Sequence record: NC_073319.1
Length of the DNA stretch: 43,969 nt
Direction: 5' to 3' (one strand)
From: Escherichia phage SZH-1
Below, in pieces: positions 7,959 through 32,581 of the stretch. The position numbers and the translations under genes are program-made. Position 1 is the first letter of the stretch; each line of letters starts with the position of its first letter. The notes beneath the pieces were generated by a model, which did not search any database, was not told where the DNA came from, and worked only from the letters and a program-made list of their open reading frames with translations.

Positions 7959-8129
7959 ATGACACAGAATGAAGTAGCTGAGCGTATCGGGGTTACTCGC
8001 CGCACGCTGAATAACTGGTTAAAGAGCGGGAAGTTCCCGGATTGTTGTATCCGCATTATGGGTCGCCGCCAGCCTGGTACGTTCGACCCGGAGAAAGTGG
8101 AAGCGTGGATTAAGGAGAACGTGAAATGA
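7959..8129 (+). CDS. AlpA-like HTH DNA-binding protein
   Basis: ATG at 7959 (listed ORF begins at TTG 7926); MTQNEVAERIGVTRRTLNNWLKSGKFP matches the AlpA/excisionase-type HTH pattern. Confidence 0.6.
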   Translation: MTQNEVAERIGVTRRTLNNWLKSGKFPDCCIRIMGRRQPGTFDPEKVEAWIKENVK

Positions 8130-28526: not shown

Positions 28527-28905
28527 CTTCTCTGCCCTCAAATATTCCGTCTAAGCCCATGATAACCTCGGCTTCGAACAAACTTATGCCGTAACCGGCG
28601 ACATCACGAAACGCTACCAAATCTTGCCATTTGAGCGCATCGCGCGGGATTATAACGATAGTATCATCTGTTTCGCGCTGTAGGAATTTAATGGCACGGT
28701 ATTTCTCGAACACGTCGATAAGAGAAACGGGGCATTCTGGCCCCGTCGCTTCTTTCATCTGCGGTTCTTTAATCACGCCCATTGCAATCAAAGCCGCCTG
28801 GTGCCCCGCCGCGATGTCGTCGAATTGCTTACGTTTCTGGCGGTCGACAAAGCACCATTGCGCAAATTCATACAGCGCTTTTACTTTTCCGAGAGTTTCT
28901 CGCGG
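28519..28905 (-). CDS. Tail assembly chaperone -1 frame extension (gpT-like part of a G-T fusion)
   Basis: Frame open without a start codon from 28905 to 28519, overlapping the last 25 nt of 28881..29297; slip site GGAAAAG next to the stop. Confidence 0.5.
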   Translation of the reverse strand, partial: PRETLGKVKALYEFAQWCFVDRQKRKQFDDIAAGHQAALIAMGVIKEPQMKEATGPECPVSLIDVFEKYRAIKFLQRETDDTIVIIPRDALKWQDLVAFRDVAGYGISLFEAEVIMGLDGIFEGREDG

Positions 28906-29297
28906 CTATCGGTGTGGTGCTTAACTACGGCTTCTGCCAACCCACTGTACTGGTCAAACAGGTTAGCCAGCGCCTCTTTGCTGAACGGTTCGTCGAATGA
29001 CCAACCGGTGACGATTTCCACGGCAAGCTGCTTGTTCAGGTCCATCACCCGCCAGCCCTTCTCATCATTATAACGCGCCCAGTTATTCAGTGCCTCACAC
29101 TCTTTATCTAATGGCGCAAGTTCTTCCGTAAGGCGTCGAATTGCCGTTGTGTAGGCGCGGCCCGCGCTAACCCCGACATCACAATCAGGACCAATGACCT
29201 GCAACCATTCTCCGGAGTCTTTACCACTCGGCAGAAGGATAGGCATTTTAGTACCGGCAGCGTGTCGGTCAGCAAAATAGAAATCAGAAAGTTTCAT
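28881..29297 (-). CDS. Tail assembly chaperone (gpG-like)
   Basis: Directly upstream of the tape measure gene; AAGGA RBS; carries the frameshift site. Confidence 0.6.
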   Translation of the reverse strand: MKLSDFYFADRHAAGTKMPILLPSGKDSGEWLQVIGPDCDVGVSAGRAYTTAIRRLTEELAPLDKECEALNNWARYNDEKGWRVMDLNKQLAVEIVTGWSFDEPFSKEALANLFDQYSGLAEAVVKHHTDSREKLSEK

Positions 29298-29404
29298 TCT
29301 TTAGTCCTTTGGTTAAGAGGTTACAGGTTAAGGTTGACGCGCCAGACGGGAACCACCCGCTTTTCGTGTGCGACACTAGGCGCAAACTTATTCTAGCACA
29401 CTAC

Positions 29405-29433
29405 TTGCACACCCCAATATAATAGGGTACTAT
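29405..29433 (+). promoter_or_regulatory. Promoter TTGCAC-N17-TACTAT with dyad AATAG-ggta-CTATT for the plus-strand island
   Basis: 27-nt core caccccaatataatagggtactattca identical to the copy at 38263. Confidence 0.5.
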
Positions 29434-29461
29434 TCACCTGTAACTTACTGAGGAAATAATT

Positions 29462-29788
29462 ATGCGTAAATTAGTGTTAGCTCTTGGTTTTATGTCTTTT
29501 GCTACTTTTGGGTCTCCGTGTGAACAGGTGTTTAGTGAATCCGTTCTTATGACTTCTGGTGTGCTTGATAGAGCCGACCCTACTATTGTAAAGGCATTTA
29601 AGGACTCTACAGTTCGCGAGTGTGAGGCCGCCGTGGAGGTTGGTAAATCGGGCCTACCCCCGCAGGCCGTAACCTACACAGTGATACGTTCGGTAGAGAA
29701 AAACGGAGATGCTTTCTATAGCCTACTGACAGCCACCCGTCTGCAAATGGTAATGACAGGGTGGGCGATAGGCGCAGAAAGTAAATAG
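29462..29788 (+). CDS. Secreted/periplasmic small protein (108 aa)
   Basis: Signal-peptide-like MRKLVLALGFMSFATFG; two Cys; GAGGAAA RBS. Confidence 0.55.
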   Translation: MRKLVLALGFMSFATFGSPCEQVFSESVLMTSGVLDRADPTIVKAFKDSTVRECEAAVEVGKSGLPPQAVTYTVIRSVEKNGDAFYSLLTATRLQMVMTGWAIGAESK

Positions 29789-29853
29789 TTGCCTTTATTT
29801 AAAGGAATCCACTGTGGTTAAATAGAACAAATCCTAAACACGAGGAAGTAAGC

Positions 29854-30984
29854 ATGGCCCAGAAGAAAATAACCGACGAACAGTTACAGGAAGAATTGAA
29901 CGCCGGGATGAAGAATGTAGACATCGCCCGTAAATACGGCATCTCAGACCGAGTTATTCGTATCCGTAAAGCGAAGCTGGCTAAGAAAGGTGTAGGCCAC
30001 GGGCGTGACGTTAGCCACCTTGTCCCAGACGGCTACAAGATTAAAGGGACGTCGTCTCTGGTAGACGAGTTCGGCAATACTAAGTTGCAATGGGTTAAGA
30101 CAGACACCGACGCTGAACGTCAGGTCGAGTTGATGAAAGCCGTGATTGAAGGCATGAAGTCAGAGATTACGCCAGTTGCGCCGGCTAAAGCGACTCGAGC
30201 CAAACGCGACGACAAGCTACTCAATCTTTACACGGTATCTGATTTCCATCTCGGTATGCTTGCCTGGGCCGACGAGAGCGGCGACGACTGGGATATAAAG
30301 ATTGCGGAAGACCTGTTCTCTCGTTGGTTCGACGCGGCGTTTCAGAAAGCACCGGATGCAGGAACAGGAGTTATTAACCTGCTGGGTGATTTCGCGCACT
30401 TCGATAGTCTGGATGCCGTTACACCTGAGTCGCGTCACGTGTTGGACGCAGACACTCGCTACCAGAAACTCGTCCGCTACATGATTCGTATGGTACGCCG
30501 TGTTGTAGATATGGCACTGGTTAAACATAAAAATGTTCGCTTGCTTATCGTACAGGGGAACCATGACCCTGTAGGCTCTGTATGGCTGGCTGAAATGTTC
30601 ACAGTTTTATATTCGAACGACAGCCGAGTGATTGTCGATACGTCGCCGGATGTTTACAAGATGGTGCAACACGGAAAAACGACGTTGTTCTTTCACCACG
30701 GGCATAAGGCGCGATTCGATGCTATCGAACCGGTTATGATTGCCAAATTCCGCAAAGCGTTCGGCGAGAGTGTTTACAGCTACGCCCACGTCGGCCACCT
30801 GCACCACCAGAAGATTGTAGAAAGCCGTAACATGATTGTTGAGCAACACCGCACCTTAGCGGCTAAAGACGCCTACGCCTCCCGCGGCGGATGGATGTCG
30901 GGCCGTAGTGCAAACGTAATTACTTATAGCGCCGAATATGGCGAGGTCGCGCGTTTAACTATTTCACCGGAGATGTTGGGATGA
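29854..30984 (+). CDS. HTH-fused calcineurin-like metallophosphoesterase
   Basis: N-terminal HTH NVDIARKYGISDRVIRIRKAKL; all five metallophosphoesterase motifs: SDFHLG, LLGDFAHFD, VQGNHD, FFHHGH, HVGHLHH. Confidence 0.75.
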   Translation: MAQKKITDEQLQEELNAGMKNVDIARKYGISDRVIRIRKAKLAKKGVGHGRDVSHLVPDGYKIKGTSSLVDEFGNTKLQWVKTDTDAERQVELMKAVIEGMKSEITPVAPAKATRAKRDDKLLNLYTVSDFHLGMLAWADESGDDWDIKIAEDLFSRWFDAAFQKAPDAGTGVINLLGDFAHFDSLDAVTPESRHVLDADTRYQKLVRYMIRMVRRVVDMALVKHKNVRLLIVQGNHDPVGSVWLAEMFTVLYSNDSRVIVDTSPDVYKMVQHGKTTLFFHHGHKARFDAIEPVMIAKFRKAFGESVYSYAHVGHLHHQKIVESRNMIVEQHRTLAAKDAYASRGGWMSGRSANVITYSAEYGEVARLTISPEMLG

Positions 30985-31211
30985 CTTCAAAATACAACCG
31001 CACAATGACAAACACCCACGGCAGCACTATGACTGTAGACGTTTACGATGTGCTGCGCGCCTTCGACATCCGCGACCCGGCGCTACAGCACGCATTGAAG
31101 AAGCTACTGTGTATGGGCCTTCGCGGACACAAGGATACCGGGACAGACTTAGCGGAAGCAATTGAAAGTCTGGAGAAGTTACAGGAGTACAGGAGTAACA
31201 TTGATGAGTAA
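30981..31211 (+). CDS. Hypothetical protein (76 aa)
   Basis: ATGA overlap with the phosphoesterase gene. Confidence 0.5.
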   Translation: MTSKYNRTMTNTHGSTMTVDVYDVLRAFDIRDPALQHALKKLLCMGLRGHKDTGTDLAEAIESLEKLQEYRSNIDE

Positions 31212-31380
31212 GACCGTAATGAAAACAATATACGTAATCCGTGTATATGACGAAGAATGGGATGAGTGGGTCGATATTTACGCCGTGGGTAGCAAGGAAG
31301 AGGCCTCGAAAGAGATGACAGAACGGAGTGACCGAGGTCAGTTAACTAACTTCTATGAAATGCCGTTCAAAAGTGAGTGA
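31204..31380 (+). CDS. Hypothetical acidic protein (58 aa)
   Basis: Internal ATG overlapping the upstream stop by 8 nt; followed by a terminator. Confidence 0.45.
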   Translation: MSKTVMKTIYVIRVYDEEWDEWVDIYAVGSKEEASKEMTERSDRGQLTNFYEMPFKSE

Positions 31381-31384
31381 GAAA

Positions 31385-31411
31385 AAGGCCCCGAAAGGGG
31401 CCTTAGTTTTA
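31385..31411. terminator. Bidirectional terminator between the plus-strand island and the major tail gene
   Basis: AAGGCCCC-gaaa-GGGGCCTT with T-tracts on both strands. Confidence 0.65.
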
Positions 31412-32581
31412 TGCGTAGGTGATACGCTGGATAATAATGGACGACTGGTACTGGTTGCCGGTTGCCTGGCCTTCAATGGACTGAGTGATTGACTCAGGTC
31501 CTCCAATCTCAGGTGTGACCGCCGTAAGTTCTGCGCGTTTCAGACTGAAAGACATAGCACCGTTTACTCCCGCCAGAATAGAGTTAATCTCTACCTGCTG
31601 TTCATTGATAAACTTCTGAATCATCGCCATGTCGTACAGCTTGCCGGAGATGGAGAAGGTGTTAGCCGCGCGACCGCGTTCCACGAACGCAACGCTACTG
31701 TTGCCAAGTTCGAACTGCGCAGAAGCACCGTTGTCGTTGGTGATGGTCAGAGTATCGCAACGCAACGGCGTTGAGCCATCGAACACAGAAACATCAACCG
31801 AAGAGAACGGCTCGTCGCCAAACGTAACAGATGAGAAGTTGGAACCGGTCGGCGGCGTAGTGAGAATCTCCTGACTGCGGCCGATGAATGGGAAGCTGCC
31901 AGTTACCATCGCGTTAACAGCCTGTTCGATGGTAAAACCAGAAACTTCCACGCCTTTGGTTAACGTGTACGCGTCAGTACCGCCGCACTGGCCTTTGTAC
32001 CAGGTAAGGATAGAGAACGTCTTACACGTGTTACCGGTTTCCAGCGTGTCGCCGGTTTTAGCCTTACTAGTTTTTGTCTCGGTGGTCAGGGTGTGTTGGA
32101 TGCCCGCACCAGTAACAACCGTAGCCGTTACTGCAGTAACAATAAATGGTTTTGCGTTATCGCCTGTTAAATCGGTAAATGCAATCAGGTCGCCTACCCC
32201 AACTCCGTCAGCGATAAAACTGCCGGTGGCGCGTGTGAACGTCTTGCCCGCGGGTGCGACGGTAATCGACAGACTGGACAGGGAAACACCGGATTGCCAC
32301 GTAGAGCCTAAAGCACCAGCTAGCCAGTCATCCTGGCTTTTCGAGCTAAGCTCGATCGCGTATTCACCGCTAACCTGTTTGTTACCGGTGCGGATGGATG
32401 TAGTTTCACGGCTGCCGTCCAGTTCGTTGGAAGTCAGCGCATCGCGGGTTACGGCAGGAACGCCACCAGTGTTACGCAACGGAGACCAGACCGGGTTACT
32501 TGGTGTTACGCCCGGGGTCACTTCTGCCACATAGAATTGCGCGGTATTCGCGCCCTTAAAAGGAGTTGTAGCCATATTCAC
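31409..32581 (-). CDS. Major tail protein
   Basis: 390-aa T/S/G-rich protein between tail completion genes and the chaperone genes. Confidence 0.65.
   Translation of the reverse strand: MNMATTPFKGANTAQFYVAEVTPGVTPSNPVWSPLRNTGGVPAVTRDALTSNELDGSRETTSIRTGNKQVSGEYAIELSSKSQDDWLAGALGSTWQSGVSLSSLSITVAPAGKTFTRATGSFIADGVGVGDLIAFTDLTGDNAKPFIVTAVTATVVTGAGIQHTLTTETKTSKAKTGDTLETGNTCKTFSILTWYKGQCGGTDAYTLTKGVEVSGFTIEQAVNAMVTGSFPFIGRSQEILTTPPTGSNFSSVTFGDEPFSSVDVSVFDGSTPLRCDTLTITNDNGASAQFELGNSSVAFVERGRAANTFSISGKLYDMAMIQKFINEQQVEINSILAGVNGAMSFSLKRAELTAVTPEIGGPESITQSIEGQATGNQYQSSIIIQRITYA

Follow-up and report, generated by a model that had tools for sequence, protein, structure and literature searches.

We analysed a cassette of four plus-strand open reading frames (ORFs), located at 29462..31380 in the 43,969-nt sequence of Escherichia phage SZH-1 (NC_073319.1), the whole of which we refer to as the window. 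The cassette lies antisense to the tail genes on either side of it, and its largest gene encodes a 376-aa protein that joins an N-terminal helix-turn-helix (HTH) domain to a calcineurin-like metallophosphoesterase; we call this protein MPE, and the other three cassette genes g1, g3 and g4. This layout had been described in an initial annotation, and it was confirmed by the ORFs and by the domain matches of the flanking genes (PF18906 and PF08748). The tail genes are on the minus strand, and the replication genes (helicase-primase, DNA polymerase and helicase) are on the plus strand, the strand of the cassette. A DNA search with the cassette region matched 440 phage records, nearly all of them Kagunavirus or Jerseyvirus (subfamily Guernseyvirinae), and the window is a Kagunavirus genome. 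The closest DNA matches of the region, with about 96-97% identity, were Shigella phage phiSD1 and the BASEL isolates Bas70-76, which are Kagunavirus phages, the isolates Bas01-13 of that collection being Drexlerviridae. The genes and the domains of MPE are as follows.

28881..29297, minus strand: tail assembly chaperone gene (PF08748), one flank of the cassette
29462..29788, plus strand: g1, ORF for a secreted protein of 108 aa (PHROG 14165)
29854..30984, plus strand: MPE gene, ORF for the HTH-metallophosphoesterase of 376 aa (PHROG 704)
29875-29985, plus strand: HTH of MPE (aa 8-44), from the AlphaFold2 (AF2) model
aa 45-60 of MPE, plus strand: flexible linker, of low confidence in the AF2 model
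30034-30165, plus strand: beta-hairpin plus helix of MPE (aa 61-104), from the AF2 model
30208-30981, plus strand: phosphoesterase domain of MPE (aa 119-376), from the AF2 model
30981..31211, plus strand: g3, ORF of 76 aa, whose start codon overlaps the MPE stop codon (ATGA)
31204..31380, plus strand: g4, a variable add-on, ORF of 58 aa counted from an ATG
31409..32581, minus strand: tail tube gene (PF18906, E 3e-37), the other flank of the cassette

The cassette exists as described and its limits are clear, yet it is nothing out of the ordinary for the subfamily and has already been deposited and annotated. It is well supported as the standard cargo of an inverted accessory site between the tail tube and tail chaperone genes of Guernseyvirinae and their relatives. 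A cassette occurs at exactly this position in Jersey, Ent3, demigod, K1H and Bas75, and a query made of the joined flanks retrieved 492 records, in 38 of which the flanks lie within about 1.1 kb of each other, too close to accommodate an MPE gene. These short-flank records include the Cornellvirus phages vB_CECAV_044 and St162, the Serratia phages Eta, Otaku and Tsm2, and Enterobacter phage phiEap-2. One or two small ORFs on the plus strand occupy the site in the short-flank phages; the depositors of Eta marked bidirectional terminators there, and in Cornellvirus and Eta the site encodes a small secreted protein only, with no MPE. A more distant Vibrio phage, whose tail tube protein is 32% identical, has no cassette site. 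Cornellvirus vB_CECAV_044 carries the same set of polymerase, single-stranded DNA-binding protein, exonuclease and helicase-primase and the same virion backbone as the phage of the window, but a search of its whole genome revealed no homologue of MPE, g1, g3 or g4, and the same was true of the 35.5 of 42.7 kb (83%) of Eta that were searched. Because the position is shared but MPE is absent from the short-flank phages, the site, judged from these comparisons, is old and its cargo exchangeable, with MPE and g3 fixed in Kagunavirus and Jerseyvirus (about 90% of records) and dispensable for the backbone. The initial annotation had seen in the cassette an acquired module. This holds in so far as the cargo can be exchanged, as the 38 of 492 records too short for an MPE gene indicate, but the site itself is conserved, and the comparison of related genomes showed that roughly 90% of Guernseyvirinae-type records have the MPE cassette in this place. 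The phage used in the CiPGr genome-reduction (essentiality) study was a Skatevirus.

The following regulatory sites were predicted at the two ends of the cassette.

29405..29433, plus strand: predicted cassette promoter, with -35 TTGCAC at 29405-29410, a 17-nt spacer and -10 TACTAT at 29428-29433
29416..29444, minus strand: predicted divergent promoter-like site of the chaperone and tape-measure genes, GTTACA-N17-TATATT (9/12 in the scan)
31385-31404, both strands: bidirectional intrinsic terminator of the cassette (plus) and the tail tube gene (minus), AAGGCCCC-GAAA-GGGGCCTT

The cassette promoter, which had already been proposed, agrees with the consensus at only 7/12 positions and was absent from the promoter-scan output, though its hexamers and spacing are kept in an alignment of Kagunavirus and Jerseyvirus in which the spacer has diverged. 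The equivalent site reads TTGCAC-N17-TATATT in Cornellvirus and TTGCAA-N16-TATTAT in Serratia phage Eta, where the depositors labelled it a promoter. Since hexamers and spacing recur in Kagunavirus, Jerseyvirus, Cornellvirus and Eta, we consider the predicted promoter to be beyond chance. A perfect TATAAT hexamer at 29418-29423 was rejected as the -10 element, as it is without a usable -35 element and is not conserved in Jerseyvirus. The suggestion that the promoter bears an operator was not upheld, the arms of the 12-nt inverted repeat in question being 101 nt apart and its right arm not being conserved in Jerseyvirus. The minus-strand site has the Jerseyvirus counterpart TTGACG-N17-TATTAA (read off the alignment), and divergent promoters are annotated at the corresponding place by the Eta depositors. 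The two sites overlap almost completely, with predicted starts about 30 bp apart and pointing outward. RNA polymerase binding to these predicted sites would therefore be mutually exclusive, and through this overlap transcription could be switched between the cassette and the tail genes downstream. At the other end, the bidirectional terminator described initially was recovered by a scan as a hairpin with an 8-bp stem containing 6 G-C pairs and with T-runs on both strands; it is kept in five phages, one of which (Ent3) has the loop in flipped orientation. Under this arrangement the cassette would be transcribed from its own sigma-70-type promoter, overlapped by the divergent promoter for the downstream tail genes, in the direction of the replication genes, and its transcript would end at the bidirectional terminator. 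In an RNA-seq study of Kagunavirus K1B4, in which the cassette corresponds to genes 041-045, the first cassette gene, Imm (045), was classed with the helicase and polymerase genes and not with the structural genes (PMC12645636).

The profile search that had been set beforehand as a test of the initial annotation placed MPE in an ordinary annotated phage family, PHROG 704 ('DNA repair exonuclease'), with an E-value of 1.5e-162 and with residues 3-375 aligned to profile positions 1-389 of 390; the protein is also identical (100%) to one deposited in GenBank for phage Bas75 (Bas75_0023). MPE is a member of the calcineurin-like binuclear metallophosphoesterase superfamily, all five motifs of which (DxH, GD, GNH[DE], H and GHxH) are present. 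In an alignment of 61 representative homologues with 32-50% identity, the residues D130, H132, G178, D179, N236, H237, H282, G314 and H317 are invariant, and H315 is conserved in at least 90%. The HTH and the ligands of a complete core had been recognized correctly from the start, but motif II is GDFAH, which has the form GDxxH found in Mre11, and not GDxxD. As every catalytic ligand is invariant across the homologues, MPE catalysis is probably under selection, and from its architecture and active-site residues we judge the protein to be catalytically intact. The HTH consists of three helices (residues 8-44) in the AF2 model, which has a pLDDT of 92.5. Members across the family match Sigma70_r4_2, GerE, HTH_1 and other HTH models, down to an E-value of 1.5e-9, and because of these matches we regard the HTH as a family trait rather than the unusual fusion it had been taken for: 1959 of the 2041 phage records that contain the family have it at full length, HTH included, which makes this the standard architecture. 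MPE itself scores below the Pfam gathering thresholds (22.1 bits for PF00149, cutoff 27, and 17 bits for PF12850, cutoff 21.5), so we consider this clade divergent and poorly covered by Pfam. At E<=0.01 the Pfam phosphoesterase models detected only 18 and 12 of the 61 relatives.

The PHROG 704-type family is large, with 3817 matches in a 90%-identity database and 4567 clusters at 50% identity (E<=1e-3), and about 4% of all sequenced phage records contain it, among them Guernseyvirinae, Drexlerviridae, phages of Klebsiella, Vibrio and Alteromonas, and N4-like roseophages. TLS gp66 from Drexlerviridae is 44% identical to MPE, and a survey of that family reported the MPE gene in 508 of 522 genomes, where it adjoins the lysis genes and in many cases precedes Pnk and deoxynucleoside monophosphate (dNMP) kinase genes (PMC13164509). 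A BFVD search with MPE returned many phage homologues that are unnamed or loosely named. Two alleles of the gene occur at one Jerseyvirus locus, about 86% (demigod, segment 3501-4631) and about 54% (Ent3, segment 3501-4655) identical to the MPE of the window (29854..30984). The divergent Ent3 allele is accompanied by an HNH endonuclease, and its neighbouring g3 is still about 89% identical. This pattern suggests allele replacement by recombination or homing. An N4-like MPE homologue with 26% identity is orf28 of Roseovarius Plymouth podovirus 1 (segment 3450-4610), which is annotated as a 'structural protein'; if orf28 is truly a virion protein, some family members might be injected together with the DNA.

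The AF2 model of MPE gave 160 matches in the PDB at E<=0.001, and the 50 listed were all of the metallophosphoesterase fold or entries containing one. In this Foldseek search Thermotoga Mre11 ranked first (E 1.5e-8), followed by the proofreading exonuclease DP1 of PolD (E 2.3e-8), with Rv0805 (E 7e-8), YfcE, purple acid phosphatase, sphingomyelinase, GpdQ and LpxH close behind the nucleases, all matches being at about 12% identity with a TM score of about 0.4. A search of PDB sequences with the family profile gave weak matches, to GerE for the HTH (E 0.03) and to a Pseudomonas nuclease MPE (E 0.64), the best match for the catalytic domain being Mre11/SbcD over motifs I-II (SDWHLG...GDLLH) at only E 0.2. 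For the four cassette proteins, neither NCBIfam nor PADLOC-DB, which covers defence systems and not phage counter-defence enzymes, yielded a match. Taken together, the structure model and the sequence of MPE lean toward nucleases, marginally.

MPE has the same architecture of HTH, hairpin and phosphoesterase as the other members of PHROG 704 (TLS gp66, K1H ORF17, Jersey gp24 and Bas75_0023). It resembles Mre11/SbcD (T. maritima Mre11, PDB 4nzv, and T4 gp47) in the DxHLG and GDxxH forms of motifs I and II, but differs from them in an identity of about 12-14%, a TM score of about 0.42, and the additional N-terminal module of HTH and hairpin. With the class III cyclic nucleoside monophosphate (cNMP) phosphodiesterases (Rv0805, CpdA and GpdQ) it shares the fold and the same five motifs; however, it is no closer to them than to nucleases, and it has a DNA-binding domain. 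The metallophosphoesterases of cluster A mycobacteriophages (A10ZJ24 gp48 and Bxb1 gp47) are likewise phage proteins of the phosphoesterase fold made outside the late operon, and motifs III-V of Bxb1 gp47 align with MPE, with shared HGH..K and GHxH forms, but these proteins have about 255 aa and are without an HTH. The hhalign comparison with Bxb1 gp47, confined to motifs III-V, gave an E-value of 0.005 but a probability of 6.8%, and the cluster A proteins reached 5.7 bits against the family hidden Markov model (HMM). These scores are insignificant, and the resemblance of Bxb1 gp47 is at the level of motifs or superfamily only. A10ZJ24 gp48 is made early, has phosphodiesterase activity and causes damage to the host DNA (PMC12287305). 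The pre-early protein A1 of T5 (segment 1706-3376) is required for host DNA degradation (PMC13250531). By eye, its C-terminal half contains GDIH, SNHD, HGH and GHTH, arranged in the same sequence as motifs I, III, IV and V, and a stretch 'NHD..S.WL' aligns with the MPE family, but its N-terminal region differs. With an insignificant 2.3 bits against the family HMM and no Pfam match, we treat T5 A1 as a lead and not as a relationship.

The gene neighbourhoods of MPE in other phages point to DNA and nucleotide metabolism. In K1H the genes downstream of MPE encode a Pnk-type HAD phosphatase (PF25109) and then a P-loop protein, and Yersinia phage 636 has a K1H-like order, with Pnk and dNMP kinase genes after MPE. 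In aldrigsur, MPE is followed by a 74-aa ORF, a Pnk-type HAD phosphatase and a protein with a PF18909 dATP/dGTP-diphosphohydrolase domain, and it also lies beside exonuclease, endonuclease and DNA polymerase genes. The loci of TLS and Snitter agree with the arrangement reported in the Drexlerviridae survey, the MPE gene of an N4-like roseophage adjoins ThyX and dCMP deaminase genes, and genes for HNH homing endonucleases often lie next to MPE. Both T1 and TLS break down the DNA of the host, through enzymes yet to be assigned (PMC11447400).

As the best explanation of these observations, to which we give about an even chance, MPE would be a DNA-directed nuclease or phosphodiesterase that serves host-DNA breakdown, nucleotide salvage or end processing. 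It would be a metal-dependent enzyme with Mre11/SbcD-like chemistry, its HTH standing in place of a Rad50/SbcC partner, and by breaking down host DNA or processing ends it would contribute to nucleotide salvage and host takeover, with g3, a translationally coupled partner, possibly modulating it. T4 offers a precedent, in which the Rad50/Mre11 pair gp46/47 and the dNMP kinase gp1 recycle host DNA. We also put forward, tentatively and as a distinctly less probable elaboration, that the family supplies the nuclease with which T1-like phages destroy the host chromosome, with the HTH replacing Rad50/SbcC and g3 as a modulator, and that, by analogy with A10ZJ24 gp48, this activity may also silence host defence genes.

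Several points weigh against a role of MPE in DNA breakdown or processing. Mre11 is barely ahead of Rv0805 and YfcE in the fold search, which does not separate cNMP phosphodiesterases from nucleases, and at the sequence level no solved structure in the PDB was matched significantly, either by the protein itself or by the family profile. The PHROG 704 name is an inherited prediction, and we found no assay of any family member. No Rad50/SbcC partner is found in the annotation of the near-identical Bas75 genome (the large ORFs of the window were not scanned), and the phage of the window is without the Pnk and kinase genes. MPE is not a core replication function, because Cornellvirus does without it on the same backbone; the K1B4 RNA-seq study, which has poor time resolution, does not report the expression class of the MPE gene (PMC12645636); and host-DNA degradation is not an established trait of Guernseyvirinae.

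The main rival, which we consider improbable but worth weighing, is that MPE heals ends, opening 2',3'-cyclic phosphates or removing 3'-phosphates on cleaved tRNA, RNA or DNA, and works with a Pnk-type phosphatase/kinase in undoing the damage of host anticodon nucleases. The phosphoesterase domain of Clostridium thermocellum Pnkp and the Pnk-based tRNA repair of T4 are analogues of such a function. The neighbourhoods would suit it, since the Pnk-type HAD phosphatase and a P-loop or dNMP kinase come directly after MPE in K1H and Yersinia phage 636, a HAD phosphatase and the PF18909-domain protein come after it in aldrigsur, and the kinase arrangement is frequent in Drexlerviridae (PMC13164509). 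However, no RNA ligase was seen in the loci of K1H, Yersinia phage 636 and aldrigsur, the kinase is annotated in several phages as a dNMP kinase and not as a polynucleotide kinase, and the phage of the window and most Jerseyviruses keep MPE without any Pnk or kinase genes. Moreover, the HTH suggests binding to double-stranded DNA.

The initial annotation had suggested degradation of host immune second messengers as a possibility, for which we found no positive evidence, as the folds are not separable and the neighbourhoods indicate DNA and nucleotide metabolism. We consider it quite unlikely that MPE is a counter-defence phosphodiesterase acting on the cyclic nucleotide or oligonucleotide signals of CBASS, Pycsar, Thoeris or type III CRISPR systems. 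The fold does include the class III cNMP phosphodiesterases, Rv0805 scores near Mre11, and exchangeable cargo that is dispensable for the backbone, at a site that also holds Imm-type exclusion genes, would be in keeping with such a role. Nevertheless, the PDB, NCBIfam and profile searches gave no sequence or profile link to class III cNMP phosphodiesterases or any nucleotide-signal phosphodiesterase, and a DNA-binding HTH would have no obvious part to play. To our knowledge, the established anti-signal enzymes use other folds, Acb1 the 2H fold and Apyc1 that of a metallo-beta-lactamase, which also counts against this role. Near-universal presence in two large phage groups and HNH neighbours are more typical of a housekeeping gene, and the BASEL Kagunavirus isolates, which have the MPE gene, are not especially resistant to the defences against which they were tested (PMC11990801).

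We regard it as very unlikely that MPE is mainly non-catalytic or regulatory, namely an HTH transcription or recombination factor that perhaps acts as an early/late switch at the overlapping promoters. Bxb1 gp47 is a phosphoesterase-fold protein that serves as a recombination directionality factor, and it aligns with MPE over motifs III-V at E 0.005, but with just 6.8% probability. The HTH is of the sigma-70 region 4 or LuxR type, there is a weak match to PHROG 836 ('late transcriptional activator', E 9e-4), and the gene lies near the overlapping divergent promoters; elsewhere, however, it lies far from any comparable promoter switch, and the catalytic ligands are all invariant at 32-50% identity. 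That MPE is a NinI/lambda-type Ser/Thr protein phosphatase reprogramming host signalling is scarcely credible, for although the superfamily is common to both and some depositors label MPE relatives in this way (Ent3 gp23), the PPP signature motifs are missing (SDFHLG and not GDxHG, GDFAHFD and not GDxVDRG, GNHD and not GNHE, and no HGG), the hhalign probability with NinI is 0.6%, and lambda phosphatase is outside the 50 best fold matches.

The remaining cassette genes are small. As stated initially, g1 encodes a signal-peptide protein, with the signal peptide at about residues 1-17, invariant cysteines C20 and C54, and a helical remainder. It matches PHROG 14165 (E 1e-55), a family without assigned function, and its AF2 model (pLDDT 76, helical) gave no match in a fold search against the PDB. 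The g1 family comprises 22 clusters at 90% identity, mostly on contigs of phage-genome length (about 31-45 kb), and occurs in 97 phage records, all named as Salmonella, Escherichia, Shigella or Kagunavirus phages, so that it appears restricted to Guernseyvirinae-type phages. At the first cassette position g1 alternates with Imm (PF14373), and the first-position proteins of Eta and Cornellvirus have a signal peptide, two cysteines, and a size and position like those of g1; homology to g1 was not demonstrable (hhalign probability about 3%). The first position would thus always be taken by a small envelope protein, g1 here and Imm in other phages, whose position makes a role at the cell envelope probable, superinfection exclusion being one example.

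We found g3 in 780 phage records, and it is 89% identical in Ent3, where MPE is only 54% identical. It has no match in Pfam, which holds no model of this domain, and aligns only to the C-terminal ~70 residues of several PHROGs of 180-250 aa, one of which is named 'ATPase'. The g3 domain, of about 70 residues, thus stands alone, is C-terminal as in these PHROGs, or is N-terminal, as in a 204-aa 'phosphodiesterase' of Alteromonas phage R7M (g3-domain loci: window 30981..31211, L010 2992-3606 and L009 3498-3761). We rejected the ideas that g3 is a remnant of the K1H ATP-binding protein (K1H ORF15), with which BLASTP showed no similarity, and that it corresponds to the 74-aa gene at the equivalent aldrigsur position, to which it is not similar either.

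The fourth gene, g4, is present in just 21 records, all of Kagunavirus type, and has no family match in Pfam, PHROG or NCBIfam. The ATG at 31204 (58 aa; AGGAG lies 8 nt before it) is a more likely start of this gene than the TTG at 31162. It is missing from Bas75, where the alignment has a 177-bp gap (Bas75 segment about 8005-8015). Relative to Bas75, g4 is a clean 177-bp insertion with similar junctions, GATGAGTAA on the left and AGTGAGTGA on the right, and the similarity of the junctions suggests insertion or deletion via microhomology.

Between the start of the chaperone gene and the cassette promoter, an almost invariant stretch on the minus strand (29339..29383) shows a sub-threshold match to Rfam model RF02996, the int-alpA RNA motif (27.7 bits, gathering threshold 35.8, E 0.0047), which recurs in K1H (31.6 bits), Ent3, demigod and Jersey. 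RNAalifold, applied to eight sequences from three genera, predicted an outer stem around two hairpins, with compensatory changes in 4 of 14 pairs and with 2 loop-closing pairs that break in Cornellvirus. By its position this RNA-like element would lie in the 5' untranslated region of the chaperone/tape-measure transcript.

Identical or near-identical phage genes, with annotation, had already been deposited for the cassette genes of the window, whose arrangement is the norm of the subfamily. The cassette site is of interest as a compact natural slot for accessory genes within a late operon, combining two predicted promoters that diverge and overlap with a structured RNA-like element and with cargo that can be exchanged. 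The broader interest lies in the MPE family, which appears catalytically intact, is found in about 4% of phage records and has a function that is predicted only. As T1-type degradation of host DNA is still without an assigned enzyme, this family would be relevant to it if MPE is indeed a nuclease.

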